Shown here in pieces: positions 46,150 through 64,000 of a stretch of 64,000 nucleotides of DNA. This DNA is from Candidatus Peribacter sp. (lineage in GTDB: Bacteria > Patescibacteriota > Gracilibacteria > Peribacterales > Peribacteraceae): NCBI GenBank assembly GCA_018652955.1, contig JABIBA010000013.1:232121-296120 (forward strand), read 5' to 3'. The notes below the pieces were generated by a model that was given only the letters and a program-made list of their open reading frames with translations, did not search any database and had not been told where the DNA came from. Positions within the stretch are counted from its first letter, which is position 1, and each line of letters opens with the position of its first letter. The position numbers and the translations under genes are program-made.

Positions 46150-46155
46150 GAGATT

Positions 46156-47661
46156 CTATTCTTCTTGCAGGTGCTTAAAGACTTCTTGGAATCTAAAGTA
46201 TTCCACGAGCCGAAGACCTGTCCATTTACCAAGGAAGACATTGATGACTATCGTAATTAAAATCAGTTCAGGGTACGCAAGGATAAGGGATTGCAAGAAT
46301 GAAAGTTGAACGATGTAGACACAGAAGAGTGCAGCCATCACTGTTTCACCAATACCAAAGAGCGCTGCTTTCCAACCTTCCTCTGTTTTTACATTGAGGA
46401 AGCTCTCTGCAAGGGTAGACATAATAAGGAGTACAAAGATAGTGTCTCCAGAAAGTGTAATATCCTGATACGCTCCAATGCCAAGCAATACGAGTAGCGT
46501 TAAGCTCACTACCGTAAGAATAATGGCAACCTTTGGAATATACAGTAGGCGCCAGCGCTTCATTATTTGTCTGGTCGCATATCCTGTAACAAGGATAAAG
46601 ACGAGGAACAGAAGTCCTAGCCCCCACCCCAAAGCCAAGAAGCTTAGAGCAAGGATAGATGGCGTATACAAGCCAAAAGTAGTGATTCCAATGACCTGCT
46701 TAAAGAAGGCCAAGATGGTCGCAATAAGCGGCAACATCAGAAGAAGAATAACTGTCTGAGAAGACACTCCATGTGTCAGCATTGAGTTTACCAGTGACGA
46801 TAGAATGTTCCACGGTCGAATACCTGTTGTGGATTTATCAACAACAAGAAAATCGATATCGCGTTGTGTAAGTTCTACGATAAAGCTGTCGATATCTTCT
46901 GCAGACATGAGCGGGTTCACTGCTTCTTTACGTGTTACTAAAATTTGATGTGGTTGGATAACAGTAAACGGACCACCAGCAGTACGCGCCAATGTGCCGA
47001 GTCCACGGTCTGTAATAAGGACGATCGTTTGGTTGTGAATCGCTTCGAACCTATCAGGGTTTCCTTCGACTGCACGCATGAGTGCTTGTAATCCTTTGAC
47101 TCCTTCGGTCCAAAGCACAACAGCTTCTGCACCGTTGAGTGTCCCACTCTCTTCGCTAAGCATAGCAAAGATAGACTCCTCGACGCCTAAGGGAATTGTA
47201 GATTCTTCTGGTTGTAACAATCGCAAATAGACTCCCGCTTCTGCGGCAGCTACAAGGTGCAGGTTGAGCTTGTCGAGTGGAATAGAGCTATCTGCAATCA
47301 GTACGATTTTCCGATCGTAAACGGTAATAGATCTCGTCGTTTCTGTTACCTCTCTTACTCCATCAATAATTGTAGAAATACTGAGTCGCATAGTTACGAC
47401 ACCTGGTTTGTCGGGAGTGAATACCGCTTCTACAGATCTACTGATTGGCACAGTGCTTTCTCCTCTATACCAAATGTATTGGGTACTGTTCCCGAGTCCG
47501 TGACTTGCAGATGCATCGAGTACGATGGTTCGCCCTACTGGTACTTCGTCGGGTCCTGTAATAATTGCACTGAGCGGTTCTGCAGTTGGAGCCTCCTGTG
47601 CAAATGAGGAGAGGGGAAGTACAAGGAGAAGTGCTGCTATGGTTAACGTTCTAAATTGCAT
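46156..47661 (-). CDS. signal peptide + PKD/Ig-like domain + 7TM (7TM_transglut-like) membrane protein
   Basis: VGRTIVLDASAS...YIW; QVIGITTFGLYTP, LLYIPK, PELIL, GKWTGLRLVEYFRF. Confidence 0.8.
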   Translation of the reverse strand: MQFRTLTIAALLLVLPLSSFAQEAPTAEPLSAIITGPDEVPVGRTIVLDASASHGLGNSTQYIWYRGESTVPISRSVEAVFTPDKPGVVTMRLSISTIIDGVREVTETTRSITVYDRKIVLIADSSIPLDKLNLHLVAAAEAGVYLRLLQPEESTIPLGVEESIFAMLSEESGTLNGAEAVVLWTEGVKGLQALMRAVEGNPDRFEAIHNQTIVLITDRGLGTLARTAGGPFTVIQPHQILVTRKEAVNPLMSAEDIDSFIVELTQRDIDFLVVDKSTTGIRPWNILSSLVNSMLTHGVSSQTVILLLMLPLIATILAFFKQVIGITTFGLYTPSILALSFLALGWGLGLLFLVFILVTGYATRQIMKRWRLLYIPKVAIILTVVSLTLLVLLGIGAYQDITLSGDTIFVLLIMSTLAESFLNVKTEEGWKAALFGIGETVMAALFCVYIVQLSFLQSLILAYPELILITIVINVFLGKWTGLRLVEYFRFQEVFKHLQEE

Positions 47662-47681: not shown

Positions 47682-48029
47682 CTACTTTTTGTGCTTTCGC
47701 ATCATCTGAACGCGACCTTTTGCTTGGTGTAGTTCCTTATATTTCTTTAGCTGACCAGTAAGTTTTTCGACACACCGATCAATACCTTCAACGGCATCAG
47801 GCTTTCTGGATTCAGCTCTCAGTACTTTTTTTGGCAATGTTATCGTGACGGATACCTTCATGGCATCACGCTTTTTTTCCGTTTTCCTATTTTCTGCATC
47901 GATGCGTATAAGACTACTTTCATCTTTGATTCTTTTGCAGTACGTAGCCAATTTCCCAACTTTACGTGCTACGACAAGCAGCTCTTTATCGTTGTAGTGG
48001 AATCCTTTCTCGAAATGTTGAATATTCAT
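47682..48029 (-). CDS. hpf: ribosome hibernation factor / ribosome-associated inhibitor (HPF/RaiA)
   Basis: MNIQ..., VTITLPKKVLRAES..., IDRCVEKLTGQLKKYKE. Confidence 0.8.
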   Translation of the reverse strand: MNIQHFEKGFHYNDKELLVVARKVGKLATYCKRIKDESSLIRIDAENRKTEKKRDAMKVSVTITLPKKVLRAESRKPDAVEGIDRCVEKLTGQLKKYKELHQAKGRVQMMRKHKK

Positions 48030-48115: not shown

Positions 48116-48126
48116 TCTGCTATAAT
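48116..48126 (+). promoter_or_regulatory. extended -10 promoter TCTGCTATAAT
   Basis: Identical 11-mer at 53243-53253; both followed by N3-TAGA. Confidence 0.65.
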
Positions 48127-48151: not shown

Positions 48152-49471
48152 ATGCCTCCTCCAGTATCTCCAAGTGGTGCTCCACTTACGCCAGACCAAA
48201 AAGCACAAGAGCTTAAAAACCTCTTAGTAAAATTGCGTACAGCACCTGCTGCACCAATTAATCCTGCGAGTGCTGAAATTAAGGAGCTGAAGAAAAAGAT
48301 CGAAGATACTAACCGAGTAGACATTCTTAAGGCATCTCAAGTTGAACTAGATTCATTGAAAGTTGAGGTTGAGGCGGCAAAGAATAATAAGGATATTATG
48401 GATGCTCTCGGTACAGAGAAGGTAAATCTTGAAAAGATGAATCTTGATATTACGACCCAAATTAATAAGACTAGATCTGCTGCCAGTACTGTTTTACTAA
48501 CAGACATCAAAGATGATGTTCTACAACTTGGTAAAGATTCCATTCCAGAAGAGAAAGGAGATGTGATCAGTATGGTTCAAGGACTAATGCTTAAGTTTAA
48601 TAAGCTTAAGTTGATGTTTGAGAAAATGACTACCTTTTCTGCCGCAGGAAAAGCAGAGATTGCTAAGAAAGAGAAACAGCTAGCTGTAGATGAATTCGGC
48701 ATGCTCGGACCACGTGGATTGCGTGATAAGTTTAAAAAGAAAGGAGCAGACTATGGTGTGAGTATCCGAAATGGTATTCGTGATAAGACTGCATTTAATA
48801 AGTATGTAGAGAAGTTTAAGAAAGGCGACATTCTGAATATCGATGAGTTTGTTGATCAAGAACTTGCTATTGCATCTCCTCAACTTAATGCTTCTACTGG
48901 CGCTCCAAAAGAAACTACCATGTATGGACTGTTGGCTCTTAAAGGACAAGAGACAAAGCTTGCATCAGCAATGGGTAAAGAAAGAGAATTGATGTATGAA
49001 GATGGTCTTGAGAAGTATGGTGTGAAGTTTGAGAATAATATTCTCACTGTACGAAACCTTGTTGATAGTAAGACGTATAACTACACACTGTCGACAGGTG
49101 CAGACGTACCTGCAGCAGCACTAGCGGCTGCTAAAAAGGCAGGTGCACCGGGAATATCTCCGGATGTCATGGGATTACTTGGTGCTTCTAAAGGAGTGAA
49201 ATTTACATCCGCAGACATAGAAGACCAAGGAGATGGTAAAAACGATAAGGTGATGGGATTTGCGTTCCAAGGTACTGCAGGCCCTATGGGCCTTTCGAAG
49301 CATCGTGGAAATGTCTCTCTCGATAACGCTACTCTTCGAAGCGTTCTTAAGGAGCTTGGTGCAGGAGATGCAACAGGACTAAAGAAACTCGTTGATCGTA
49401 AAATTGTTTCTAAAGGCATATTTGCCAAAATAAAAGGAGATATTGAATTCAAAATCGAAAAATCTAGCTAA
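48152..49471 (+). CDS. hypothetical coiled-coil protein (439 aa)
   Basis: Long ORF with its own promoter; no recognisable family. Confidence 0.8.
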   Translation: MPPPVSPSGAPLTPDQKAQELKNLLVKLRTAPAAPINPASAEIKELKKKIEDTNRVDILKASQVELDSLKVEVEAAKNNKDIMDALGTEKVNLEKMNLDITTQINKTRSAASTVLLTDIKDDVLQLGKDSIPEEKGDVISMVQGLMLKFNKLKLMFEKMTTFSAAGKAEIAKKEKQLAVDEFGMLGPRGLRDKFKKKGADYGVSIRNGIRDKTAFNKYVEKFKKGDILNIDEFVDQELAIASPQLNASTGAPKETTMYGLLALKGQETKLASAMGKERELMYEDGLEKYGVKFENNILTVRNLVDSKTYNYTLSTGADVPAAALAAAKKAGAPGISPDVMGLLGASKGVKFTSADIEDQGDGKNDKVMGFAFQGTAGPMGLSKHRGNVSLDNATLRSVLKELGAGDATGLKKLVDRKIVSKGIFAKIKGDIEFKIEKSS

Positions 49472-49483
49472 CCCTCTTTTACT

Positions 49484-52400
49484 ATGGCCCCTTCAGCAAT
49501 TGATCTTCTCAAGAGTAAACTCAAGATAGGGCTCGCAGTACCTGATGCCACTTTGAAGCATCAGAAATTACTAGATGCTATCAAAGAAGGGACACCAGGA
49601 TTTGATACACCTGTTCATCGTCAATCTCGAGTAGATCGTGCTCGGCTTGCTATTCAATTCATGAAACATGATGAGATTCGAACTGCAGGTATCCAAGTTA
49701 TCGATGAAGCGATTGCTAAAGTGGCAGCGGATAAGGCCAAAGCAAATAAAGAGAAATTAACTCCAGGAAAGACAGCTGCAGAGAAAACAGTGATAGATAA
49801 TAATATTGCGGCACTCGAAGCAGAGAAGCTTGAATATATTGGAGCACGTAAAGAAGCAGAGGCAGCAGTGCAGGCTGCAAAAGCTGCTGCAGCAAAACCA
49901 ACGCCAAAAAAACCAGTAACAAAGCCAGGTATTGTTGGTACTCTCGCAGGCGTTACTGATGCAGTATTACCGAAAGAGATGTCAGAGAAAATGAGCAAAG
50001 AAGCTAAAGCTCTAGCTGCAGTTGTTACAGGGGCTGCTCTTGTTGCAGGACTTGTGTGGTTGTTTAATCGTGGTAAGGATAAGGCAAAGTCTGCTGGTAA
50101 GACATTGTTGATTGCTGGAGGAGTGGTGCTTGCAAGTATTTTTGGTTTAAAGCTTTTTGCTGATCTTAGGAAATTCGGAAGTATCAATAAAATGATTGAT
50201 GCTAAATTGAAAGAGCGACAGGCAAAAAAGGAGCCATGGATAAAGTTCGGACTTACAGAAGATGATTACAAGAAAGCAGACGATATTTATCATGAAGAAG
50301 GCGAAGCTGGTAACGATAAAATTCGTGCATTCTTTGGATTAGCTCCGGGGGCAACCAATATAAAATACGAAGCGTACATGGAATTTATTCGAGGAAAGTA
50401 CGAAACTGTTGAAAAAAATGGCATTACATATGCTCGTGCGGAAGTGGCATTACAAAACTACGAAGATAATATTGGCACTGCTGTAAAAGAGTTGGCACGT
50501 TGGGTAAAAGATAACTATGTAAAGGTAGCCGTGGGTACGTACATCGCTTCGCGATTAGGTATTCTTCGTGCAATTCTTTCTGGTGCGGGTACTATTGCAT
50601 CTAAAGCTGGTCAACTAGCAAATGCCATGCGTAAGTTTGGATGGAAACATCCTATTATTGCTATTTTTGCTTTGGGAGGAGCTGTTATTGGTATTCGTAA
50701 GGCTATTTCAGCCGGAAAAGATGTCATGCTACCGGAGAACTTACCAATGTTTTCTACTGCTGTTGCAGCAAAGAAACCTGTATCACATGGCCCGTTGGAT
50801 GTTTCATTGGCAGGCCCTCTGGATACACTGAGTAAAAGTGTAGAGGAACTTGGTGTGATAACTGGGGACTTTGCAACATGGGTAGGTACTGAATTTATGG
50901 ATTTTGTGAATTACATTGATAAAAAGGCACCAGAATCATTCCGTAATAGTGACCCGGAGATTATCATTAGCAGAAACATGGCATGTATAGATGCTCTTCG
51001 TGATTATTTGGATCGCAGAAAAGGGAATGCACCCACAGCGAGAAAAAAAGTGAATGCAGGTAAAGGTGCTGACTATACAACTGCTATAGCACTTCTCGAT
51101 GCATACGAAAGCTCATTTATTTTGCATAGGTGTGAAAATGTTACTACCAATAAAGAGCCACAAGAAGCATATAAGAAGCTAGAGGGCGCTTTAGCAAAAG
51201 TGCAATTACTCGTAACGACAGAAGGGGATGTTGTGTATTGGCAGCCTGCTGATAAAAGCGAAGTGCGTCGTGCACTCTGCGTACATCCTTCTGTAACGGA
51301 TAAGGATAAGCTCCTAGAGCTTTCTAAACGGTTATTTCATGGAGAGGGTGATGATGTATATGTAGTAAATCGTGTTAAAGAAGAATTAGGAAAACAGCTA
51401 GGTAAGAATATGGATAAGCTCGAAGGTTTCCCTTTGGGCAGTAAGGGGTTTGCCATGATAATTGGAAATTTCTTGTACTTTATAGAGTTTGATCTCAGTA
51501 AAGGATTTATAGACTGGGAAAATATGAATAACTGGGCAAGAGCCCCGTTGAGTATCATGTTCTCAGAAGATGGTAAAGATCGTGATTGGCGAGAGTGGTC
51601 GGCAGATGTAGGGATTGGCGTTATGCATACGGCACTATTTGCATTGAGCGCAGGGACTCTTGGATTGCTAAAGCAGGCAGCTATTGGTGGTGGACCACTT
51701 CCAGGAAGAGGTAAGTTTAAAACTCTAAAGAAGATAGCAGTAAACATCACACCTGGTGTCTCTCATGCGAATGTTATAAAAAATACGTATCGTACATACT
51801 TTGATTTTAAGATGATGTATCACTTTCCTATACGAGGAAGGGGGTTCAACAATGTTTTCCAAGAAAGTGGATTGCGTCCTGAGTGGATACGTAGCATCGA
51901 AAATTCTGGTAACGGGTATTTGGCTAGATGGAAACTAAGACGCATTGCAAAGAAAGCCAATATTAGAGTAAAAGCTGCACGAACTGCACAGCAATTACGT
52001 ACTACGTTGCGTAATGGATTTGTTACTCGTTTAAACTTGTCAAATGCCAATGGACAAATAGGAGCTGATGGGGATTCTATGTACGATAATGTTCGTGATG
52101 CTTTTGCGCCAGGTGCGGATGCAGAAACGGATACAGTAGCAGAAGGATTGGAAACAGAAGAAGATAACGCACGCGTTGAAACATATAAACAAATGCTCGA
52201 TCAAGGAAGGTCTGTGACTGAAATGGTAAAGAACGGAGCACACGTAGGAGACTTACTCAAGGCAGATGCAGATCCTGATGAGACACTAAAGGCTGTACAG
52301 GGACTTGCTGACGAGGATCTCCGTGCTGAAGGACTAGATGCCTTGAAAGCTGCTGGAGTAGATACAACACCAAAACCAGTTGCACCAAAGCCAGCTGCAA

Positions 52401-53221
52401 AACCAACATTTACCGAGCAGCAAATTAAAGACACGGTGAAGGCAACAGAGTCAGGAAAACTTAGCCTCGATAAAAAAACACAGATCTATTCTGACTTGAT
52501 TAACAAGAACAAAATTCCTTATCAAAGCCTTATCAAGGCTGGTGCAGATCCAAAAGCTCTCATAAAAGCTGGAGTTAGTCCGGCAGAGGTAGCGCTTCAT
52601 ACGCCGAAGCCAGCACCTGCTAAACCTGCTGCATCAAAACCTGCAGCTACTAAACCTGCTGCGAAGCCACCAGCTCCTACTAAGCCTATTCCTGCTAAAC
52701 CTGCTGCACCAAAACCAGCTTCAACTGCTGCACCAAAGATTACTATTGCGCAATTGCAGAAGGAGCGAGGTGCGATAGAGAAGTCTATTACTGAAACAGT
52801 AGCAGAAGTGCGCCCTGCTAAAGGGCAAGCTCGAGCGAAGCTCCTTGCGAAGCTAGAGGCGGATTTCGAGGCACAGGCTAAGAACTTGGAGTCGCAAGTA
52901 GCACTGGATCCGAAATTGGATGCTAAGTTAGCTCCTCGTATCGCAGAGGCACGAGCCATGTCTGGAAAAATGGGTAAGCAATTAGCTTCACTTAAGAGCA
53001 GAATGTCTAAAAATGCTGCTTCTCAAAGTCCAAAAGGCCGTAAAGATAAGGTTTCGTCAAGGCAAAAAGGTACTGGTGATACAAGTGTTTCACCAGGTAC
53101 GCCTGGAGCTGTGCATGAAAACAGGTCAGGAACGGATACTGTGGTAGATCTACAAAACCCAAAAAATCAGGTCGGAAAACGTAAAAAAGGAGGCGGTGCT
53201 AACGTAAAGGTGGTTAAGTAA
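49484..53221 (+). CDS. large hypothetical protein (1245 aa) with several hydrophobic helices and Pro/Ala/Lys repeats
   Basis: TM-like segments around aa 175-225, 345-405 and 710-730; no signal peptide. Confidence 0.85.
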   Translation: MAPSAIDLLKSKLKIGLAVPDATLKHQKLLDAIKEGTPGFDTPVHRQSRVDRARLAIQFMKHDEIRTAGIQVIDEAIAKVAADKAKANKEKLTPGKTAAEKTVIDNNIAALEAEKLEYIGARKEAEAAVQAAKAAAAKPTPKKPVTKPGIVGTLAGVTDAVLPKEMSEKMSKEAKALAAVVTGAALVAGLVWLFNRGKDKAKSAGKTLLIAGGVVLASIFGLKLFADLRKFGSINKMIDAKLKERQAKKEPWIKFGLTEDDYKKADDIYHEEGEAGNDKIRAFFGLAPGATNIKYEAYMEFIRGKYETVEKNGITYARAEVALQNYEDNIGTAVKELARWVKDNYVKVAVGTYIASRLGILRAILSGAGTIASKAGQLANAMRKFGWKHPIIAIFALGGAVIGIRKAISAGKDVMLPENLPMFSTAVAAKKPVSHGPLDVSLAGPLDTLSKSVEELGVITGDFATWVGTEFMDFVNYIDKKAPESFRNSDPEIIISRNMACIDALRDYLDRRKGNAPTARKKVNAGKGADYTTAIALLDAYESSFILHRCENVTTNKEPQEAYKKLEGALAKVQLLVTTEGDVVYWQPADKSEVRRALCVHPSVTDKDKLLELSKRLFHGEGDDVYVVNRVKEELGKQLGKNMDKLEGFPLGSKGFAMIIGNFLYFIEFDLSKGFIDWENMNNWARAPLSIMFSEDGKDRDWREWSADVGIGVMHTALFALSAGTLGLLKQAAIGGGPLPGRGKFKTLKKIAVNITPGVSHANVIKNTYRTYFDFKMMYHFPIRGRGFNNVFQESGLRPEWIRSIENSGNGYLARWKLRRIAKKANIRVKAARTAQQLRTTLRNGFVTRLNLSNANGQIGADGDSMYDNVRDAFAPGADAETDTVAEGLETEEDNARVETYKQMLDQGRSVTEMVKNGAHVGDLLKADADPDETLKAVQGLADEDLRAEGLDALKAAGVDTTPKPVAPKPAAKPTFTEQQIKDTVKATESGKLSLDKKTQIYSDLINKNKIPYQSLIKAGADPKALIKAGVSPAEVALHTPKPAPAKPAASKPAATKPAAKPPAPTKPIPAKPAAPKPASTAAPKITIAQLQKERGAIEKSITETVAEVRPAKGQARAKLLAKLEADFEAQAKNLESQVALDPKLDAKLAPRIAEARAMSGKMGKQLASLKSRMSKNAASQSPKGRKDKVSSRQKGTGDTSVSPGTPGAVHENRSGTDTVVDLQNPKNQVGKRKKGGGANVKVVK
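52601..52738 (+). repeat. low-complexity (K)PA(A) peptide repeats
   Basis: TPKPAPAKPAASKPAATKPAAKPPAPTKPIPAKPAAPKPASTAAPK; recurring AAACCTGC at DNA level. Confidence 0.75.
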
Positions 53222-53242
53222 TACTGTCTTGAAACGGCTATT

Positions 53243-53253
53243 TCTGCTATAAT
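53243..53253 (+). promoter_or_regulatory. extended -10 promoter TCTGCTATAAT
   Basis: Duplicate of 48116-48126. Confidence 0.65.
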
Positions 53254-53277
53254 TACTAGATTTAAACGTATCTAATT

Positions 53278-56145
53278 ATGGCAGAAAATACATCTAATAA
53301 TCGGGATTCCTCCCAAGCTTCTCCAGAGAAGGTGAAGATGGATAAACTGTATGACGAGTACATAGACAATCTTGCTGAATTTGCTAAATCGACAGATAAA
53401 AAAGAGGAGTTGCTGATAGGTATTCTTGCAGGATTTGAAAATAAGCCAGTGGATCTAGACTCGACATCTGGAAAGGGGAAAAGCTTTTTATCTGCTCAAC
53501 GCAAGCTACTTGAGGAAGAGCAGAACAACTTTAATGACGCAGTGGGTAATCTTACACTTGGGCTGACGGCTAATGAAAAAAAGAACCTGTTGAGCATCGT
53601 TCAGTTTCCGAAGAAGGCACATGCATTTAACAAGATGGTATCGTTCTTCAGCGAGTTTGATTTAAAGGGAACAAGTGCGACTCCTCTTTCGAAACATGCA
53701 CCGGCATCATTACTGGAAGCACAGGCGAGACATAATACTGACTATTCAAAGATTACAAGAATGTTTGAGAGCAGTAAGAATGGAGCTTCTTTTAGTAAAG
53801 AAGAGTGGGAAAAGGTAACTATAATGGCTGCTGAATTCAAAGCATTCGATGAGCCTTTCCAGGCACACATAAAAGACGTGATGCGTTATGATGATGAGCA
53901 GACAAAGAAGTACGTTCTAAAGAACCCCCCTTTATTTGATCTGAAAACAAAGGAGGCAAATATGGATTTACTTGAAGTAATTGGATTTGAAGATGTATTA
54001 AAACCAGAGCAGTTTCAGAAGATGATGGAGGACATTTCTTCTCCACTTCCTCAGATTGCTAACCTCTCAAAGAAATCGAGTGCTCAAAAAAATGCGATCG
54101 AAGCCTATCGCGTTCGTGTGATGAATGATCTTGCTGACCATAAGTCAGCTTATGATTATCAGATATATCTAGCCAATGCTAATGGGAAAAATTCTTTAAG
54201 TGCAGAGGATAGAGAAAACTTTAGAACAGCTACAGTGCGAGCGCTCATGCAGCGTGCTCAGTATGAGCAGTATCTTCAAGCTCCAGATGACAAGAAGTTG
54301 GGTATCCATTGGCTTAAGTCCACATTAAACATGATGCTCATTGAAGGAGTAGAAGAATTTGTAGAGGGAATACATGATACAAAAATGCTCCACATTTCTA
54401 ATGCAAGACTTCTGGAGTCATTTGGCAGAATGTCACCTGTTATGCAGCAGACAGTTCTTAAGACTCTAGGGTCACACTTAGCTAAAGATGGAGTGGTCTT
54501 TGTAGAAGGATTAAATGCTCTTTCAGAGAAGCAGCTTGGGTCACTTCTTAAGACATTAAATAAAAACCTTCCCCCAGAGGGGCGGTATACGATTAGTGAA
54601 AAGTTGAATAAAGTGCAGATGCGTCAGCTTGCTCAGAAAATGCTAAAGGTGCCGAGAGGTAGCTCAAAGTTTGTTAAAGAAATTGCGGATTTCTCCGAGC
54701 TTTCACCTGAGGTGCGTAAGCAACTGTTGAACGGGTGGAAAAGCATCGAAAAAGAATTGATTAGAAACAAGGTGCCGCCAGCACGTATTGCAGAAATCCG
54801 TAAAAATCTTAAAGCACTACAGAAAAAAGGATTCTTCAGAGATACATTAGAAATGGCACGCAACCCAGTGACTGTCATGATCTTCGCGATCTATATCTCT
54901 GAACATCCAAACAACATTCAGGCAGCACTTAACTGGGCTGGGTTTATTGGAATTAGTAAAACAATAAGTGGCGGTTCAGGTCTTCTTACCAAGTCAAAAT
55001 TTCTCAATAAGAGATTTCCACGGATTAAAGGAATAAATCATCCTATTATACAGTTTCTTGTTGTAATGGGAGTACTAATGGGACTTGGGAAAAAAATAAA
55101 TGAAACAACAAGTTATATAGATGAACGCTTCCCTGATAGTCAGTTTAAGGAAGGGGTATATGCAACGTTTGGAGCCTTGGAAATGCCGGGGCGTATGATT
55201 GGAGATATTGGTAGAACTATCGGCTGGAACAGGAGTGATAATTTTAAGAGCTGGTCAGAGTACTTAACAGAAGAGAAGACAGCGGATGGATGGACACCGG
55301 AACGTGCTTTTTATAGAGGACGCAAAGATTGGAATACTGCTCTCGATGGTCAAGTTAAGCTGCATCCACACAACAAAGAAGGAGTAGCTAGGCTTGAGGC
55401 AGATAGAATTAATAAAGATTGGGGATTGCGTCAGAATGTGGATCTCGTTGGAAAGATAGCTACGCTAGATATCTATCGTGAAGATTTTCTTCAGCTCTAT
55501 TCAGAAATGAAGGCAGAAGATGACAATCTTCCACTTACTGTAGAACAGTTTCGTGCATCCCTAGAAGCAGGAGAAGAGGCAGCAATAGCGGATACTAAAG
55601 ATATAGGAGGACAGGATAGAAATGATCAGTATATTGCTAGGCTCTTCGATGGCACAGTTACACTCACGGGGTATGAAGAGGACAAGCAGGAAACATTAGG
55701 CAACCTTCACACTGCTTTTACGTTTATGGAGAGGGGTAATATGAAAAGTCCTTCCGAAGAAGCATTACAAAAGATAGCCAGTGGGAAGCAAAAACCTACC
55801 TCTTTACGAGATACAGAGAGGTTGCGTATGTTTTGGGATACGTACACAGGTCAACTCAAACATGTTGCGACTATGGTGAGCTTGTTTAAGCACCTTACAC
55901 TTCCAGATAGCAAAGGAGTGGAGCACCAAATGTACGACCGTCACACATGGCTTGGCAATGGAACAAAGGAGCAAAACAAAGTGTTTACAAAACGTATAGT
56001 TGATGGACAGATGAGCCACATCTTACTGATGCTGAAACTCGAAAGGCTTGCTCCATATTCACTCAATACTAAAGCCACAGAAGAGCTAACTCGGTTAGGG
56101 GGTAAAAAACCAAAGCCTTCTATTCCTATTCAAGAACTTCCTTAG
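53278..56145 (+). CDS. large hypothetical helical protein (955 aa) with central hydrophobic segments
   Basis: PVTVMIFAIYI, AALNWAGFIGI, PIIQFLVVMGVLMGLG; no signal peptide. Confidence 0.85.
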   Translation: MAENTSNNRDSSQASPEKVKMDKLYDEYIDNLAEFAKSTDKKEELLIGILAGFENKPVDLDSTSGKGKSFLSAQRKLLEEEQNNFNDAVGNLTLGLTANEKKNLLSIVQFPKKAHAFNKMVSFFSEFDLKGTSATPLSKHAPASLLEAQARHNTDYSKITRMFESSKNGASFSKEEWEKVTIMAAEFKAFDEPFQAHIKDVMRYDDEQTKKYVLKNPPLFDLKTKEANMDLLEVIGFEDVLKPEQFQKMMEDISSPLPQIANLSKKSSAQKNAIEAYRVRVMNDLADHKSAYDYQIYLANANGKNSLSAEDRENFRTATVRALMQRAQYEQYLQAPDDKKLGIHWLKSTLNMMLIEGVEEFVEGIHDTKMLHISNARLLESFGRMSPVMQQTVLKTLGSHLAKDGVVFVEGLNALSEKQLGSLLKTLNKNLPPEGRYTISEKLNKVQMRQLAQKMLKVPRGSSKFVKEIADFSELSPEVRKQLLNGWKSIEKELIRNKVPPARIAEIRKNLKALQKKGFFRDTLEMARNPVTVMIFAIYISEHPNNIQAALNWAGFIGISKTISGGSGLLTKSKFLNKRFPRIKGINHPIIQFLVVMGVLMGLGKKINETTSYIDERFPDSQFKEGVYATFGALEMPGRMIGDIGRTIGWNRSDNFKSWSEYLTEEKTADGWTPERAFYRGRKDWNTALDGQVKLHPHNKEGVARLEADRINKDWGLRQNVDLVGKIATLDIYREDFLQLYSEMKAEDDNLPLTVEQFRASLEAGEEAAIADTKDIGGQDRNDQYIARLFDGTVTLTGYEEDKQETLGNLHTAFTFMERGNMKSPSEEALQKIASGKQKPTSLRDTERLRMFWDTYTGQLKHVATMVSLFKHLTLPDSKGVEHQMYDRHTWLGNGTKEQNKVFTKRIVDGQMSHILLMLKLERLAPYSLNTKATEELTRLGGKKPKPSIPIQELP

Positions 56146-56147
56146 TC

Positions 56148-59100
56148 ATGGCCGAAAAACAATCCAGTAACGGCGGATCAAATAATACAGATAACCTGAG
56201 AAAGAATCCTTCTGCATCTGAAATTACGAATAAAGATATCTCTACTGCACGTCTACGTATTGGAACATTCGAGGAAGATAAGGGTCCTACTAGCGTATCG
56301 AAATTAGAAGGCCAGACTAGTACCGCAAAGCATAATGTAACGGTCATCGGTACATATAATCATTTAATGGGTAATGAAGATCGTTTGGATGCACTCAAGC
56401 TTATAAAGGAATCAGGACAGGAGACTAAGGTGATATACCTTCAGGAGAGTGCTTCTATGAGAGAAATGATGGCAAGGGATATGCATTCGTACATGAAGGT
56501 TATTGAGCTCTATCATGAGGTAAATGCTCTTGCTACTAGTGAAGGCGTGCCACTCTCAAAAGATCAGGAAAAGCTGAGAGGTCAGACTCGTAATCATTTT
56601 GCAGCGGTAAATAGTGCAAGTGAGGAGTTTACGTCAGCACAAAAAAGAATCATCGCTATTCTCAAAGAGAATACCAAGCTTAAAAAAAGCACAGATGCCG
56701 GAGCGCCCGCAAGACGAGAGCAGCTTAAGGATGCTTACAAAATAGCTCAGCAAAATCGCATAGAAGCAGATAAAAAACTCGATGCACTTCTCAGTTGCAG
56801 GTCAGATGTACCCGGAGGTAGCCCAGAAGGAATAATGCCTGCAGGAAAACTGACACTTTCTCTTCTTACAAGTTTGAATGAGTTGTACAAGCGTAAGATG
56901 GACACTCTCAGTAAGACAGGGGACCGGTTGCGCAAACTGTCTCAGGAAAACCAGAATGACATTGCCAATAAAGATCCTCTAAATCGTCGAGATGCATTCA
57001 GAGAATTACAGGAGAAGATGCAGGTGAGCCTCCAGAAGTATTTACGTTTGAGCGGCCTGATGGGACGTCACCATGCAGATCGTGCGAAGCTAGGAACAAT
57101 TAAGAAAATATTTGGAGAGCAAATGGATACTAGAGATATAGATGGAGTAGCAAAAACAACAGTCGACCCTGAGCGTAAGGAGCAAATGGAGGCTATGCTA
57201 AACGAACGTGCAGATGCATCGTTGCAGAATATCTCTACGCATCTAAGTATTACAAAAAAAGAAGCTGTTACTAGGGCAAGTGCCGAAGATCAGTTTGTAG
57301 CAAACCTTGCTGAGAGACTTGCACATTTACATTCGGCACAGTTTCCGCCAAACCTTGCTGGGATGAAGTTAATACGTAGTGCGATAAAAGGAAGGTATCG
57401 CGACAACGTGTATGCTGTTATCGGATGGCCTATTATTGGCGGCGAGCCTGCTCCATTTACTTCGCTTCATCCAGATCTACAGCGAGATATCTCTAGAAAG
57501 CTTCAAAGCATTCGTTTGAAATATGAGAACTTTGTCGCAGCAGACGAAATGGGCAACTTGGAAGAGTCTCTTGCTGCTACCAGAGAAATTTTGTTTAGAA
57601 TAAAAGGAAAACGAGCAGGTTGGAGCAATAGAGAATTGTATGCTGTTGGGTCAGTACGCTCAAGTGGAAAACGCATTACCCTTGCGGACGTAGAGGCATC
57701 GGGGGAAGACCCAAGACACACACGCATTTTGGTACAAACTGCTTTTGAACAATTGCGAAATGACTGGGATGGATATCACACATTACGATCGCAGCTTCTG
57801 GCTGAAGTACATGAAGTGATTGGTTTGCACTTTGAATTAAAGGGAGAAGAGAATATGCATGACTTTGAAATGAAAGAGGCAGGCGACTTGATGGATAATG
57901 CTATTCAGTTTGGAATTGCGGGATACTTCATTAAACGAGGTCTTTCTCCAAAAACTCAAGAAAGTCAGCAGCTAGCAAAGGTTATGCGTGGCAAGTGGAG
58001 AACTGCTATGAGAGCAGAGCGTAATTTAGCATCTACATCGAAGTTTGCGAGAATTAAAGGTCTCTTCCAGTGGATTCGCTCTGGTAGAAATGCAAAATAT
58101 ATTTCAGAATTACTGAAGAGATCTGGATTTAATCCAGCTCAAGTTTCTCAGCTAAAAGGGGCTAAGTCTGCGACAGAATTTATGAAGAATTTGAAAAATG
58201 TTGCGAAGCAAGGAGGAAAAAGTGGAGATGAAGCTACTGCAATAATGCGCGCTGTAATGAAAGGAGATGCAGCCGGTGCAAAGGCTGGACTAAATACAAC
58301 AAAAGCTGCTGCTAAAAGCAGTTCTCGACTTGGAAAATTTACGGGTCGTGCAGTTCCTTTGCTTATTGCTGCGTACTACCTATACGAGATAACACAGAAA
58401 TTTGGTGAGGCAACAGAAGAAAATGATCGTGGCAAAGATGTCATGGAAGCTATGGGAAAAGATATGGAAAAGGCCGGATTCGTAAAAGTAGAAGGCTCGG
58501 ATTATGTCTATAAACACAAGGAAACCAATACAAAGGTAAGCCTAAAAACCATACAAGAAGGTTTTGACCATAATGTGAATACTAAATACCTTGAGGCTGC
58601 AGGTCTTGGAGTAGGTCTTGCTATTTTAGGGTTGTCTTTTGCTGTTGGAGGTCCGTTGGGAGTAGTGATTGCTATTGGAGGAGTTATTATTGAGGTAGTT
58701 ATCGAATGGGCTATTGGTGAGTGGCAAGATGTAGATACCCGTGACCTTCTTGCAGATATTCCACCATGGCTAATCGTCCCCTTTGATGTTCTTGCTTCAG
58801 TGAACAAAGATCGCGATGCCTTTGCGGCGTTACATGAAATATCTTCTGGGATTAATTTAACTGATGGTATTGAACGTGCCACCTTTAGCAAAAGGTCTCC
58901 AGAAGAATTTGATAAAATTCGAGATAAGGCACTCTTTAGTGTCGCGATGAGTGACTTGCGTACACAGGCACCCACTGTATTAAGAGAACTTTTTGCCGCA
59001 GGCAAAAAGAATGATGTGGAGTTTGTAAATCAGTTCTTTGAAGCAGACTTCCGCAAAGTCATTGTGCCTGCATTCTACAAAGCACTGCGTCATGAAATGA

Positions 59101-62100
59101 TAGAAACTAATCTTGAGGGATTTAACACAAGCAATCTGCATAGCAGGATAAAAGCTAGAGACCTCCTAACAAAGAAAACACCAAAAACTCTTATTACACG
59201 TTCCATGCGTAATGTTATGGTTCTCTATCTTGCCAACCTTAAAGAGCAGCGGTTTGTTGGTGCCTACCAAATGAAAAAGGATGCAGAGAGGATCCTTGCT
59301 TTGCAAGCAAGGCCCATGGAGCAGTTGAGAATAGATCTATATACGAAACAAGATCAAATAGCTGCCTTACATAAGGACGAAGCTTCAAAAGATGATATAG
59401 GAAAAGCAAATGCCGAATTAGAGGTTATTTCTACGAAGATAAATATATTAGATAGAGAACTTACTACGTATCGTGAAGCTGTAGTAGCTGCGAATAGTCT
59501 TCTTACGCGCATGGGAGAAGATAAATTATTTGGTGTAAAACTTTCTGAACTCGACCCAGAAAAATTGAGCACTCATAATTCAAGAGCAATGACGATACTC
59601 TTAAAGCTTGGTGATAATGAACGATCAAAAATTCGAACACCTGGTCGAACAAAAAGCATTGCAACGGACTACCTCAGCGATGTTGATAGGGCTCTGTGGA
59701 AGAAGATGGATATCGTCAATCCTACAAAAGATGGACCAGTAAAAGGATCATTCTCCTTTACCTCCGCTGCTGAGCGTAAAAATGCGTATGGGTATCTAAC
59801 CGGAGACCCTGTACTTGGATGGGAGGTTGGGAAGCTGTATGCCATGGATCCTAAAACACCAGGATATAAAAAAGTATCTTCTGGTACAGAGTACGCTGTT
59901 GCCAGTTTGGCATTTGCATCTGCTGGTGTTGGTGAGAAGAAGCATAGGCAAGAGCTCTTCTCTCGTGCGTATGGAAATCTTACGTCAGCTGAAAGGAGCG
60001 CAAACCCTACGAGAGCTGAGCAGATTGAAAAGTGGTACGTGAAGGGTCTTCCTGCGGGGTACTCTAGAGAGCGTGTTACCCAAGCTGCTGAAAACTTCTT
60101 CCGTATACGTGGGGATGAATCCTTTAGACGAAACACAGACTGGGAGAAAATGCTCTTTGAAGATGGTGAGTATCCTCCAACAGTGATTACTTCTGTAAGT
60201 AATTACGGTGCTGATAAGGCGCTTGAACAAGAAGACCCAGACAAGTACGAAGAGCAACTGCGCATTGCGAAGCATCGCAACAAAAGAGTCAAAGACGCAT
60301 CTGAAGGATTGTACAAAAGCTTGCCTGCAAACCATCCAATCTTTACTAAGAAGAACCTTAAGTCCATCGTTTTCCAAGAAGATCATCATGTACGTGAAAA
60401 AATGGTACGAAATGATGGGGAATTATTCGCAACGCAGGATTCACAGGAGTTGGACCACGTAGTTGTTGCAACAGCATTCTTTGTTGATGAGCAGGGGCGT
60501 TCGTTTGTGTTACGCAATGCAGCGGTGATTTACAAGAATCCATATATTGTTAATGCAGATGAACGTAATGCACATACATTGGAGCATATTGAATATGGTA
60601 ACTGGTTGCTGAATGCAGGAATCGATTATCCAACAGATCGCAATAAAGCAGCAGTGCTCAGCTCTGTTGAACGTATCAGTTCTCGTCGCATTACAGAGGA
60701 ATCTGTAGAGCTTTCTCAGATACATAATGAGCAAACTCCGGAGAGCGCACTGCCGGGATACGAAAGAGATCCTTCTATAGAAATGGCTCTGTATCATGGC
60801 AAAGAACAGTCTCCTCTGTTGTACCTTTCTGTAATGAAGAACAAGGATGGTTCTCCTGCTTTGAAATTTGAATCAAACTCTCCTGAATTTGAGATGCTAC
60901 AAGGCCTGGCTATTCCTGCACATCGTGACCCTGGTATGCCATACGAAAGGAACCCCGATGCAGTATTTGTAGAGTTTGCAACAGCACAAGACGGAAACAT
61001 TACTGCTATTGCTTCCTACGTCACTACGAGTGGAGGCAAGACACGTAGACTTTCTACTGTTCGTAGAAATGCATCAGTGGCAACAAGAACAGAGAAGAAT
61101 GAAGATGGAAGCTGGAAACAGTGGACATATATAACTGGTGAAACAGTGCACGGTGCTCGGCTGAAAGACGTTGCTAGTCTGCGAAAGCAATTTGGTGACC
61201 CAGAAAAAATCGGTACAGAAATCTCCACTACATTGAAGCAGCGCAACCAAGAAGACATCGCTGATGTCGTGCAGCAGCTTGATCGCAGAGGTAGTTCAAA
61301 TCAGTTGTCACCATACAAATTTGTAAACGCAGGTCTTGAATATGATGGTGTCGGAGAGCCAAAGATTGTTCACGCTCTTACACTCAATGATGAAGCGACA
61401 GGGAAGAAGGCAACGGTTCTTTACACTGCACGAAGAAGAGAGAATTTGTTTACGCCACAAACATCGAAGCGCACTATGAACGTTAAAGGAGAGAAAAAGG
61501 ATGTGCATATGGTGATGCCAAGTGACCGTACCAATGGTATCGAATCCTATCGTATTCACTTTGATGCGTCTGGTGGAGAAGATGTACCTGCAGATGAGTT
61601 TGTTACTTTTGGTAGTGTGCACGAAATATTCCAAAGTGCTCGATACACCTTTGCACAACGTGAGAGGATATTAGCGATAATGACAACACCACTTGGTAGT
61701 CCAGAAGTGTCTATCGAAAGAATACTCCAACTCTTCCCATACGAAATAAACGCTAAGGGAGAAAGTACTTCTAAGCTTCTTATGGATAAGCTACTACCGT
61801 TTTATAATGCAGCAGCTGATAAGCAGGTTTTCCTAAGAGAGCTACTTGAAAGTCTTATGCAGCGTGGTGGAATCTATGAGTCAGAAATAAATTCCATATT
61901 TATGGAAGAGCGCATCACTCTTAATCCTGATGGAGAGACAGAATACCTAATTTGGGGTGGGCATTTGGTGATTAATATTGATGCAGAAGAACGTGTACAT
62001 CTTTCGGTAAAACAAAAAGGCAAAATTCTTCAGCCACCAGAGGGAACAGTATCACTGAGTGGTGTCCCACAAAGAACGGACGGCACGTATAGCCTTGGAG

Positions 62101-64000
62101 ATATTGTCTCTAGACAAAAAGGTGCCAGCAATAGCGTTATCCTTCACGTAGAAGTTCCTGGCATGGCAAAGTCTCATCGTCCAGTAAAGCTGCTGACATA
62201 CGAAAGAGATACAGAGAAGAGAGAGAAGGTTCTTGGTACTACAGAATTACGGTCTAAGACTGTTCGGGTTGATTACGCTAATAGTATGCGAAAGACCACA
62301 ATGCACAATGAAAATGGTGTAAAACAAGATGCGTACATACAAATGACTGAAGGTGCTAATTTTGGAAGTAAAGGTGCCACTGGGTCATATGAACTCCCTG
62401 ATGGAACCAAGAGGAAATACACTAAGTTTGGCCCAAGAGCTAACTTTATAAGAGTGACGAATAAGGATGGAGATGAACTCTCTTCAATGTACTTCGCGAA
62501 TGGAAAAATGCTTCGCTATAGACTCTCAAGCGCATTTGGCGGTGACAGAAGTAAGTTAGCTGAAGCATGTAATAATGATCCAGAGATCATGCGAATGTAC
62601 AGTAAGCTTTCTAGGAATCTGCATACTCATCTTACACAGCCTTCCACAGAAACAGATCCTTCTAATGAAAAAGCATACTTTGCTCCTTTGATGAGCGTAT
62701 TGAATCTTTATGGTGTAGATACAGAGATGGTACATAAGCGTAAGCGATTTATGGGTGCTATTCGATTGCAGTACGAAAAAGCGATTGATAAATCTATGTT
62801 CCTTACGCATCTTATTAGAAAACTAGAAGCACACTCAACATATGATGGGCAGCTTACTCTTAAGCAAGGAGAGAAGAAGGGTACATATGGAGCTGGTTCG
62901 ACGTTTGGTAGCATAGAAAAGTACCTGAGAGATGCTGTGATAAGCGATCATCTAGAAGTCGCTGCCATCAGTCCAGAAATGCCACTCGCTGAGTGTCAGA
63001 AACTTATAGATCTTCACTTTGATTTGCGTCAATACGATGACGCATTTAGACATTCTCCGGTTATAGAGTGTCAGAAAAAGTGCATCGCACTCATGCTTCA
63101 AGATCATATAAAAAAGAACAACATTACCTCATGGAATAACGCCATACTGCATGACTTCTTTGGGACTATCGACAGCGTCTTAGACAGGGCTCAGGAGATT
63201 GGACAAGGACGTATCGCTGGAAGTTATAAAATGGAAAGCACTGTGGATCCTTATGCAGACAAAGTTGCTCGAAAGGATTGGAAACGTGCTGAAGGACTGA
63301 ATACTCGTGCGCTCTATATGGGATCAAACTATACGATGCACTCTGTAATGGATTTGATGATTCACACCTATGGTGTGTCAGATAGTTCTAGGAAACAGTT
63401 TGAGTCCTTCCGAGTATCAACAGATAAAGATATGGAAAAGAAGGGGATTTACTCATTTGCCAATCTTATGAACAAGAAAGACACGAGCGTAGCTCTCCGT
63501 TCTTGGTATGGAGTCACTGATGCTAAAACAGGGCTATATTACACATTTCACATATCACCCGTGGAATTTAAGAACAAAGAAAATGTCATTACGCAGCATG
63601 GGGGAGTTATGCGTCTAATGCGATCGGATGCAGATCTTTCAGAAGATTGGGATATCGCAGGTCCATCGCTAACTCACGGTATCAATACACCGAAAGAGGA
63701 TCATCACATTCCATTGCGTGACCTTAAAAAAGAAAAAGCAAATTCATGGATTTTTAAAGACAATAAGAAATCCATTCAGCATATTCGTGGGTATAAAAGA
63801 AGTCTTGATCGAACAGGTTTCCGCAGCCTTACTGTCCCTTATGGTAAGGAGGCGGGTAATGCTTATAGCCTTCAGGCTGTAAAAGAGATCTTAGATCTCT
63901 GTGATCACGAAGTTAATTTGCAACCAGACGATAAAGAAGCAAAGAAAGAATATTGGAAGGTAGAACTCTTCTTGGGGATAAAAGAGCAGTTCTTACAGGC
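56148..64000 (+). CDS. giant hypothetical protein, at least 2617 aa, 3' truncated by window edge
   Basis: ATG 2 nt after the preceding stop (MAEKQSSNGG...). Open wherever I translated it (about 56.1-60.8 kb and the window end, ...VELFLGIKEQFLQ). The track lists no ORF in this frame, which fits a frame with no stop. Confidence 0.85.
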   Translation, partial: MAEKQSSNGGSNNTDNLRKNPSASEITNKDISTARLRIGTFEEDKGPTSVSKLEGQTSTAKHNVTVIGTYNHLMGNEDRLDALKLIKESGQETKVIYLQESASMREMMARDMHSYMKVIELYHEVNALATSEGVPLSKDQEKLRGQTRNHFAAVNSASEEFTSAQKRIIAILKENTKLKKSTDAGAPARREQLKDAYKIAQQNRIEADKKLDALLSCRSDVPGGSPEGIMPAGKLTLSLLTSLNELYKRKMDTLSKTGDRLRKLSQENQNDIANKDPLNRRDAFRELQEKMQVSLQKYLRLSGLMGRHHADRAKLGTIKKIFGEQMDTRDIDGVAKTTVDPERKEQMEAMLNERADASLQNISTHLSITKKEAVTRASAEDQFVANLAERLAHLHSAQFPPNLAGMKLIRSAIKGRYRDNVYAVIGWPIIGGEPAPFTSLHPDLQRDISRKLQSIRLKYENFVAADEMGNLEESLAATREILFRIKGKRAGWSNRELYAVGSVRSSGKRITLADVEASGEDPRHTRILVQTAFEQLRNDWDGYHTLRSQLLAEVHEVIGLHFELKGEENMHDFEMKEAGDLMDNAIQFGIAGYFIKRGLSPKTQESQQLAKVMRGKWRTAMRAERNLASTSKFARIKGLFQWIRSGRNAKYISELLKRSGFNPAQVSQLKGAKSATEFMKNLKNVAKQGGKSGDEATAIMRAVMKGDAAGAKAGLNTTKAAAKSSSRLGKFTGRAVPLLIAAYYLYEITQKFGEATEENDRGKDVMEAMGKDMEKAGFVKVEGSDYVYKHKETNTKVSLKTIQEGFDHNVNTKYLEAAGLGVGLAILGLSFAVGGPLGVVIAIGGVIIEVVIEWAIGEWQDVDTRDLLADIPPWLIVPFDVLASVNKDRDAFAALHEISSGINLTDGIERATFSKRSPEEFDKIRDKALFSVAMSDLRTQAPTVLRELFAAGKKNDVEFVNQFFEADFRKVIVPAFYKALRHEMIETNLEGFNTSNLHSRIKARDLLTKKTPKTLITRSMRNVMVLYLANLKEQRFVGAYQMKKDAERILALQARPMEQLRIDLYTKQDQIAALHKDEASKDDIGKANAELEVISTKINILDRELTTYREAVVAANSLLTRMGEDKLFGVKLSELDPEKLSTHNSRAMTILLKLGDNERSKIRTPGRTKSIATDYLSDVDRALWKKMDIVNPTKDGPVKGSFSFTSAAERKNAYGYLTGDPVLGWEVGKLYAMDPKTPGYKKVSSGTEYAVASLAFASAGVGEKKHRQELFSRAYGNLTSAERSANPTRAEQIEKWYVKGLPAGYSRERVTQAAENFFRIRGDESFRRNTDWEKMLFEDGEYPPTVITSVSNYGADKALEQEDPDKYEEQLRIAKHRNKRVKDASEGLYKSLPANHPIFTKKNLKSIVFQEDHHVREKMVRNDGELFATQDSQELDHVVVATAFFVDEQGRSFVLRNAAVIYKNPYIVNADERNAHTLEHIEYGNWLLNAGIDYPTDRNKAAVLSSVERISSRRITEESVELSQIHNEQTPESALPGYERDPSIEMALYHGKEQSPLLYLSVMKNKDGSPALKFESNSPEFEMLQGLAIPAHRDPGMPYERNPDAVFVEFATAQDGNITAIASYVTTSGGKTRRLSTVRRNASVATRTEKNEDGSWKQWTYITGETVHGARLKDVASLRKQFGDPEKIGTEISTTLKQRNQEDIADVVQQLDRRGSSNQLSPYKFVNAGLEYDGVGEPKIVHALTLNDEATGKKATVLYTARRRENLFTPQTSKRTMNVKGEKKDVHMVMPSDRTNGIESYRIHFDASGGEDVPADEFVTFGSVHEIFQSARYTFAQRERILAIMTTPLGSPEVSIERILQLFPYEINAKGESTSKLLMDKLLPFYNAAADKQVFLRELLESLMQRGGIYESEINSIFMEERITLNPDGETEYLIWGGHLVINIDAEERVHLSVKQKGKILQPPEGTVSLSGVPQRTDGTYSLGDIVSRQKGASNSVILHVEVPGMAKSHRPVKLLTYERDTEKREKVLGTTELRSKTVRVDYANSMRKTTMHNENGVKQDAYIQMTEGANFGSKGATGSYELPDGTKRKYTKFGPRANFIRVTNKDGDELSSMYFANGKMLRYRLSSAFGGDRSKLAEACNNDPEIMRMYSKLSRNLHTHLTQPSTETDPSNEKAYFAPLMSVLNLYGVDTEMVHKRKRFMGAIRLQYEKAIDKSMFLTHLIRKLEAHSTYDGQLTLKQGEKKGTYGAGSTFGSIEKYLRDAVISDHLEVAAISPEMPLAECQKLIDLHFDLRQYDDAFRHSPVIECQKKCIALMLQDHIKKNNITSWNNAILHDFFGTIDSVLDRAQEIGQGRIAGSYKMESTVDPYADKVARKDWKRAEGLNTRALYMGSNYTMHSVMDLMIHTYGVSDSSRKQFESFRVSTDKDMEKKGIYSFANLMNKKDTSVALRSWYGVTDAKTGLYYTFHISPVEFKNKENVITQHGGVMRLMRSDADLSEDWDIAGPSLTHGINTPKEDHHIPLRDLKKEKANSWIFKDNKKSIQHIRGYKRSLDRTGFRSLTVPYGKEAGNAYSLQAVKEILDLCDHEVNLQPDDKEAKKEYWKVELFLGIKEQFLQ

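Follow-up and report, generated by a model that had tools for sequence, protein, structure and literature searches.

The window, a 64,000-nucleotide stretch of DNA, corresponds to positions 232121–296120 of contig C9 in a genome of 1.2 Mb and 17 contigs (G000), and its right-hand end is occupied by four co-oriented genes, ORF1 to ORF4, whose frames are all intact across 16 kb (Table 1). The four reading frames of 439, 1245, 955 and at least 2617 aa, arranged with gaps of 12 nt (ORF1–ORF2) and 2 nt (ORF3–ORF4), were confirmed as originally described, with a further gap of 56 nt between ORF2 and ORF3; the downstream contig sequence places the stop of ORF4 at the window-equivalent position 64175, i.e., 175 nt beyond the window, which completes a protein of 2675 aa. 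At 16,024 bp the four-gene cluster makes up 1.3% of the genome, a share that does not bear out its earlier description as costly for a streamlined genome. The gene directly after ORF4 encodes a 260-aa protein that is, from its sequence, probably a PD-(D/E)XK-type nuclease. Farther to the left, on the minus strand (43777–47661), lie a gene for a 7TM inactive-transglutaminase protein and then a gene for a protein in which ATP-grasp_ST and a MATCAP-family peptidase domain are fused; the latter protein, a peptide ligase and a peptidase in one chain, is conserved beside hpf.

Table 1. Genes and sequence features of the cluster and its left border, in window positions
Feature	Position	Strand	Description
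hpf / S30AE ribosome-hibernation gene	47682–48029	−	Divergent left border of the hypervariable slot; Pfam PF02482, E 1e-9
Extended −10 element TCTGCTATAAT before ORF1	48116–48126	+	Generic in this genome
ORF1	48152–49471	+	439 aa; no hydrophobic segment; one of the 300–560 aa proteins opening the hpf slot
ORF2	49484–53221	+	1245 aa; N-half (~residues 45–857) of hpf-slot giants, core-less, then Pro/Ala/Lys linker and helical tail
ORF2 hydrophobic hairpin, residues 176–226	50009–50161	+	N-terminal module common to ~50 giants
ORF2 C-terminal tail	52727–53218	+	Common with the core-less 886-aa giant before lepA (C2:147086)
ORF3–ORF4 promoter region	53225–53260	+	Matches the C9:39925 promoter, which serves a small-partner/leader-protein pair, at 33/36 nt (blastn E 6e-5)
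ORF3	53278–56145	+	955 aa; single hydrophobic helix (583–601) following a basic amphipathic stretch and His-Pro motif
ORF4	56148–64000 (window end)	+	2617 aa in the window, frame open (2675 aa complete); helical N-half, family core, alpha/beta C-half with 3 copies of a helical repeat
ORF4 family core, residues 674–1135	58167–59552	+	Alignment A1; 153 clusters; 84/199 family genomes; model pLDDT 80.6
ORF4 C-half, residues 1200–2260	59745–62927	+	Variable in the family; 14/199 family genomes; model pLDDT 67.5

Each of the two gene pairs had been placed behind the same promoter motif, and indeed TCTGCTATAAT is found 36 nt upstream of ORF1 and 35 nt upstream of ORF3. The element is a property of the genome rather than of the cluster: there are 8 exact copies of TCTGCTATAAT genome-wide and 33 copies of the shorter TGCTATAAT, 32 of them directly before an ORF, mostly that of an ordinary gene, and a consensus scan for the motif gave 19 sites vs. 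31.9 in shuffles. Because the motif is generic, representing the ordinary extended −10 of this genome, the shared promoter is no evidence of co-regulation, and the motif was rejected as a sign of it. Three RNA runs were searched as well; they gave only chance matches of 19–33 nt and do not contain the organism.

None of the four proteins reaches the cut-off of a Pfam or NCBIfam family, in line with the expectation that they match neither housekeeping nor phage structural families. Their best PHROGs rows have E values of 0.048–0.093, with none better than 0.048 and none describing a tape measure, and tape-measure rows in BFVD appear only at E values of at least 0.085; together with neighbours that are host genes and form no tail-gene neighbourhood, this leaves the suggested likeness to tape-measure proteins unsupported. 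In agreement with the noted lack of a Sec signal peptide, no Sec-type signal is visible, as none of the four proteins has a Kyte-Doolittle window of 19 residues above 1.3 in its N-terminal 175 residues. By the same scale, ORF2 contains five hydrophobic windows and ORF4 a central hairpin, so that the layout ascribed to all three large proteins is common to them only loosely: the hairpins of ORF2 and ORF4 stand, and the single helix of ORF3 forms none. No mutual matches among the four proteins were detected by BLASTP or phmmer, and the best profile-profile pair, ORF2–ORF3, has an E value of 0.009 and a probability of 4.5%; direct paralogy of ORF2, ORF3 and ORF4, raised in the original prediction, was rejected accordingly. 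A basic amphipathic helix, a His-Pro motif and a hydrophobic helix do recur in ORF2 (386–404), in ORF3 (583–601) and in the partner protein sC described below, with the same weak profile E value between ORF2 and ORF3.

The family core of ORF4, a helical region of ~400 aa, begins with a basic amphipathic helix and continues through a weakly hydrophobic helix, a short beta hairpin and a Gly-Pro hydrophobic hairpin (~810–866) into a helical domain. Alignment A1 comprises 40 core rows at ~20% identity within one family; the clusters matched by the core come from 1.84 billion representatives, and among the matches listed 132 of 150 are at least 1000 aa long (a word-indexed homologue search with A1, which is insensitive, returned 1 protein). 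In a class-wide sample the core is present in 19/40 genomes of the family vs. 0/260 other genomes of the class, the family label of the genome searches being taken as Peribacteraceae, a family of uncultured and probably host-dependent bacteria. Apparently full-length core proteins (117 in all) have a median length of 1852 aa (range 1044–4540 aa) with the core in a central position; a hydrophobic segment falls inside the core in 102 of them and within the first 25 residues in 1. These giants are charged and helical in make-up and contain 0.4% Cys. Their N-halves form a single BLAST similarity component (120/121), and the 129 C-halves fall into 18 components; none of 36 giants scanned reaches a Pfam cut-off, with no enzyme or toxin domain among them. 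All four proteins, once regarded as orphans, have relatives inside the family, and the anticipated homologous clusters exist family-wide. The giants form a real and modular system that is restricted to the family among the genomes searched and has no known homologue, and they are members of none of the known families tested.

The remaining large proteins of the cluster relate to this architecture in parts. Residues 45–857 of ORF2 are common to 13 proteins by profile iteration, and in three of these (P0106, P0109 and P0121) the ORF4-type core is present as well. Among the 12 complete proteins sharing this N-half, 10 continue into hydrophobic segments and 2 do not, these being ORF2 itself and a 1307-aa gene product at another locus (L109); the same two are the only ones of 8446 ORFs compared to end in NVKV(V)K (NVKVVK in ORF2 and in its core-less L109 relative), and in both an ORF3-type gene comes next. 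Beyond these last residues the two tails have no similarity, as 484 of 500 shuffles scored as high. The ORF2 tail (last 160 residues) is shared with C2:147086 at 36% identity across 132 aa (E 3e-19). This protein is likewise an N-half lacking the core, and its relatives P0134 and L066 continue into one; elsewhere the ORF2 tail gave one weak match (E 1.6e-4) across 199 family genomes. Relatives of ORF3 were found in P0005 (63% identity over the full length), G008, G003, G222, G091 and L109; their genes lie ahead of lepA or gyrA or, in the case of G091, immediately precede a giant of the ORF4 type, and two of the relatives contain the C-terminal repeat of ORF4 (E 1.6e-6 and 0.009). By this comparison, ORF2 is the N-terminal half of a giant, cut before the core, and ORF3 is a third module; because of this pattern of module sharing, the cluster as a whole is a mosaic of one modular family.

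The cluster fills a slot between hpf and the 260-aa nuclease-labelled gene that is highly variable among relatives. Among the slots of 80 hpf relatives, 54 are readable without a break as far as the nuclease, the next small gene or ProRS; the other 26 are truncated or rearranged. One or more orphans of at least 230 aa are present in 53 of the 54 fully read slots, 27 hold one of at least 1000 aa, and 1 is empty. Content varies even within one genus: the slot of G003 contains orthologues of ORF1 (62% identity) and of the start of ORF2, that of G007 a single 1517-aa gene, and that of G002 genes of 137, 418 and 704 aa. The ORF1 group has 24 members by single linkage (6 by profile iteration), and the dN/dS of ORF1 against its G003 orthologue is 0.22, compared with values of 0.047 and 0.076 in two genes from the flanks, which makes ORF1 fast-changing though subject to purifying selection. 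The corresponding value for the ORF2 N-terminus is 0.13, and GC3 in the cluster is near average. An order of ORF1-like, core-less ORF2-like and ORF3-like genes recurs in L109, and because two queries detected no ORF4-type gene in the L109 genome, the complete order of four genes was encountered nowhere else. In a tree built from the 40 cores (with no rows dropped, no one-clade test and ORF4 on a long branch), ORF4 lies outside a supported 29-row clade that contains all 8 hpf-slot cores; since, in addition, its best matches precede lepA, ORF4 has probably moved into the hpf slot. A record titled Kiritimatiellales (L164) has a Peribacter hpf slot with a leader-bearing giant and is probably a mislabelled or mis-binned contig.

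Small genes accompany the giants of relatives. A gene for a protein of ~135 aa (sA) lies within 5.5 kb upstream of 30 of the 43 core-bearing giants examined and occurs in 32/40 family genomes vs. 0/260 others, with no Pfam family common to the 16 sA members scanned. It is usually found alongside sC, whose product of 180–300 aa carries both an amphipathic and a membrane helix together with His-Pro and a tail rich in Pro. The predicted complex of an sA–sC pair (from genome G143) scored 0.84 vs. 0.01 for the best control, a mark reached by 116/157 solved complexes and 2/215 mismatched pairs; contacts agree between runs to at least 79%, at a partner pLDDT of at least 82, with the firmest contacts on the conserved stretch 108–120 of sC and an interface that includes its amphipathic (153–164) and membrane (170–183) helices. 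Thus, sA is predicted to bind sC so as to cover both of these helices. A second small gene (sB, ~115 aa) is present in 22/22 family genomes at 1–5 copies and in 0/178 others. A third gene, whose 60–170 aa finish with a Gly/Ala/Val amphipathic helix, lies ahead of many giants of the hpf slot (16 training matches plus 7 more, none of them in G000).

The second recurrent feature is a leader (an aromatic residue or His followed by Ser, E-x-R-L, a hydrophobic residue and F/Y/H), with which 30 of 149 large proteins examined begin. A matrix of this leader, trained after one likely false row had been dropped, places three unrelated large orphans, each coupled to a small gene, at the top of 1051 N-termini of G000. 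Scores of at least 8 bits were obtained for 19 of 29 distinct genes behind sB (20/31 rows, two loci being duplicated) vs. 12/1051 in the background; kin are not independent of one another, but the genes behind sB match neither the G000 orphans (BLASTP) nor the giant profiles. Among ORF2-type proteins, the leader starts 6 of 13 and is missing from 7, which is odd for an essential signal. None of the window's ORF1–ORF4 has it (matrix scores −6.6 to −2.9), and the window contains no small partner gene, the sA and sC of G000 being on contig C2. There, before lepA (C2:145995–149746, L082), they form a cassette with the 886-aa gene, a core-less N-half with the tail of ORF2. Four sB copies in G000 (C9:36892–41652, C10:44996–49992 and C13:10853–12434; L083–L085) each lie 1–2 nt from, or overlap, a large orphan with the E-x-R-L leader; further pairs of a large orphan with another small gene are located at C10:2185–5377 and C9:153345–159361 (the latter without a visible leader), and leader-like starts were recognised by eye at C11:2456 and C2:122055. 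Among titles and abstract openings in the openly accessible literature, no description of the giant family or of the leader was found.

Structure prediction gave a nearly all-helical model of the core and an alpha/beta model of the C-half (pLDDT in Table 1). At E values of up to 0.001, fold searches returned 0 matches for the core in PDB and BFVD and 0 for the C-half in PDB; the best scores of a wide search with the undivided models were Z 11.6 for the core (a generic hairpin) and Z 4.6 for the C-half. The absence of fold matches does not establish that the folds are new, nor that they differ from known ones. The best E value of a PDB sequence search was 0.69, and ESM Atlas gave a top score of 0.85, to unnamed clusters and of no use for annotation. 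No pore-former match of the core was obtained by sequence or among the fold-search rows, and no adhesin fold was found for the C-half in the PDB fold searches. On an approximate insertion scale, the family medians of core helices 1–3 are ~+3.7, +2.2 and +1.5 kcal/mol. Most helices in three resident membrane proteins fall between −4 and +0.7, and the best windows in five soluble proteins between +1.8 and +4.2. At the centre of the third core helix, the most frequent residue is Glu (53/141). Marginal helices are the pattern of conditionally inserting pore-formers. The core helices fit such conditional insertion, yet, because their medians overlap the best windows of soluble proteins, they could also be buried helices of a soluble bundle.

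Secretion ATPases linked to the cluster had been anticipated, but none is near it: VirB4-, VirD4- and pilus-type ATPases all lie elsewhere in the genome, as a VirB4-like ATPase at C2:74715 (PF19044 over the cut-off), three TrwB/VirD4-like ATPases at C13:4080, C10:28808 and C2:1310 (PF10412 over the cut-off) and three pilus-type ATPases. The TrwB/VirD4-like gene on C13 carries the same exact TCTGCTATAAT promoter element. Since VirB6 homologues are reported absent from Gracilibacteria (PMC12102498), a type IV channel in this genome may be incomplete. The type III export gate SctV/FlhA (FHIPEP, PF00771) has 0 matches in the genome, which is rated 99% complete (the control was positive in 4/14), WXG100 has 0 matches, and FtsK is represented by two partial matches at contig ends only, i.e., by one ordinary FtsK that is split, with no multi-domain EssC/EccC seen. 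Membership of the giants among type III translocators with their chaperones was rejected on the missing gate, and membership among type VII substrates on the missing WXG100 and multi-domain ATPase.

Several known systems are nonetheless reminiscent of these genes. Eag chaperones of type VI secretion (Tse6 and Rhs effectors) serve effectors with transmembrane helices, and the likeness lies in a small soluble gene beside a large one, in its predicted covering of membrane helices and in a conserved N-part with a variable C-part; the difference is that the sA members have no common Pfam family and that Pfam scans of 16 sA members and 36 giants revealed no Eag (DUF1795), PAAR, Rhs or toxin domain. 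With type III translocators (IpaB/YopB and YopD with class II chaperones) and chlamydial Inc proteins, the giants have in common the lack of a Sec signal, disordered N-termini, coiled coils, a central hydrophobic hairpin, and amphipathic partners of small and medium size within the same operon. They differ from them in being two to seven times longer, besides the missing gate, and the match of the core to IpaB (Z 10.5, rmsd 4.4, 135 aligned) is that of a generic coiled coil, with equal unrelated rows alongside. The pore region of the large clostridial toxins TcdA/TcdB is a similar series, in which a weak helix and a soluble linker lead to a Gly-Pro hydrophobic hairpin midway along a giant protein; the giants, in contrast, have no PF12920, protease or glucosyltransferase domain (PF12920 has no match in the genome at E values up to 1, nor in 40 cores), and the TcdA/TcdB delivery domain is absent from the fold-search lists of the core, which were filled by generic coiled-coil matches. 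The TcdB-type translocase was dropped for want of sequence support. Type VII pairs (PE/PPE, LXG with Lap) resemble the present ones in the translational coupling of a small helical gene to a large variable one and differ from them by the WXG100 and FtsK results given above; a PPE chain (2g38_B) aligned to residues 63–194 of the core model with Z 9.5 (rmsd 4.2, 107 aligned), which is within noise for helical models. Finally, PMC4736985 describes large Cys-rich (~7% Cys) exported proteins with signal peptides in Ca. Peribacter riflensis and links strain variation in very large Peribacter proteins to host adaptation. These proteins and the giants belong to the same bacterial family and are both large and strain-variable; the giants have neither an N-terminal signal peptide nor a high Cys content (0.4%), and their assignment to this Sec-exported surface class was rejected. 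The seven very large variable proteins of PMC4736985 may include members of the giant family.

Overall, the giants would act most like chaperone-escorted membrane-inserting effectors, a comparison with about even chances of being right, in which export, target and function are all inferred. Under this interpretation, the cluster would be one copy, in rearranged form, of a cassette that is specific to the Peribacteraceae and encodes large helical proteins lacking Sec signals; small partner proteins likely keep these giants soluble, and a Sec-independent route likely exports them, so that the weakly hydrophobic helices would insert into the membrane of a host cell. The leader may serve as the export address, VirB4/VirD4-type or pilus machinery as the route, and the core as a pore or anchor in the target membrane, with ORF2 and ORF3/ORF4 possibly replacing together one full-length giant. 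That the giants are escorted by chaperones and exported to insert into a host membrane is a proposition on which we would place an even bet. It draws on the near-absence of hydrophobic segments from the N-termini of core proteins, the marginal core helices, the sA genes upstream of giants with the predicted sA–sC complex, the leader, the uniform N-halves with diverse C-halves and slot contents, and the VirB4-, VirD4- and pilus-type ATPases encoded. Family-wide clusters, purifying selection on ORF1 and predicted partner binding in relatives speak in favour of the original prediction of a possible host-contact or translocation apparatus, in which the tape measure, the linked ATPase and promoter co-regulation find no support. 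Counting against the present interpretation, the leader is absent from all four window proteins and from 7 of 13 ORF2-type proteins, small partner genes are absent from the window, the sA–sC complex was modelled from genes outside the window, of genome G143, the core helices overlap soluble windows, no enzyme, toxin or pore-former match was obtained, and the type IV channel may be incomplete.

The main alternative, unlikely but serious, is that the giants are resident scaffolds, their hairpins wedged into the cell's own membrane and their large domains cytoplasmic, shaping the cell or its contact pole with the partners as permanent subunits. A central hairpin requires no signal peptide, and the helices of ORF4 (−0.4 and −0.7) and ORF2 (−1.25 and −1.06) are within the range of resident helices; the giants scanned contain no enzyme domain, and sC resembles a single-pass protein with a Pro-rich tail. 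Against this, ~20% core identity in one family, slot turnover within a genus and swapped C-halves would be unusual for an internal scaffold, the model puts sA over the membrane helix of sC, and a leader common to unrelated proteins is left unexplained. Rather less probable is an exported but surface-retained stalk for host-specific attachment or bridging, whose C-halves would read the host surface with nothing delivered. The variable, repeat-containing alpha/beta C-halves and the wide range of lengths agree with such a role, as does the variation tied to host adaptation in PMC4736985, but the surface proteins described there are Cys-rich with signal peptides, as opposed to the Cys-poor, charged and helical giants, and no adhesin fold was found. 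We regard as improbable a membrane-disrupting system directed at phages or competitors, silenced by its small partners and varying through an arms race with viruses: hypervariable slots, tight coupling of small and large genes and the predicted complex would also fit toxin-antitoxin logic, but slots fixed family-wide (53/54 closed loci), restriction to one family and near-average GC3 set the cassette apart from mobile defence islands. That the cluster is a mosaic in decay or formed by accident, with ORF2 as a truncated relic, as the stops of ORF2 and C2:147086 ahead of the core and the probable arrival of ORF4 might suggest, is highly improbable in view of the intact frames, the dN/dS values of ORF1 and the ORF2 N-terminus, the full-length conservation of ORF3 in P0005 and the gene orders that recur in L109 and G091.

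Returning to chaperone-escorted, membrane-inserting effectors, a bolder version, which we advance tentatively and think rather unlikely in its full extent, would posit an export pathway of the Peribacteraceae's own, in which the E-x-R-L leader and three unrelated families of small chaperones route changing giants into the host envelope, where the core opens a channel for feeding or delivery; the window would then hold a split form, ORF2 and ORF3/ORF4 replacing one giant. The findings bear on how Patescibacteria draw on their hosts, for whom a 2024 review (PMC11665869) states that what the type IV system does is completely unknown and that delivery of effectors is speculation. The family described here puts names to candidate substrates, namely the giants, to a candidate signal in the form of the leader, to putative chaperones (sA, sB and the gene for the small amphipathic protein) and to a membrane module that is conserved. 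Three features of relatives have no earlier description in the literature covered: the E-x-R-L leader, which unrelated orphans share, the small partner genes coupled to large ones, and the predicted covering of a membrane helix by one partner. Applied to any Peribacteraceae genome, the leader matrix would predict additional substrates, and host specificity could reside in the variable C-halves. In another genome (G126, contig C23, L055), a tandem array of at least three giants (2765 and 2476 aa and more) was observed, with six core matches genome-wide. Other very long ORFs of G000, at C16:19970–31699 (3909 aa), C2:171970–183627 (3885 aa) and C1:38836–46758 (2640 aa), are unrelated to ORF1–ORF4 by BLASTP and phmmer.
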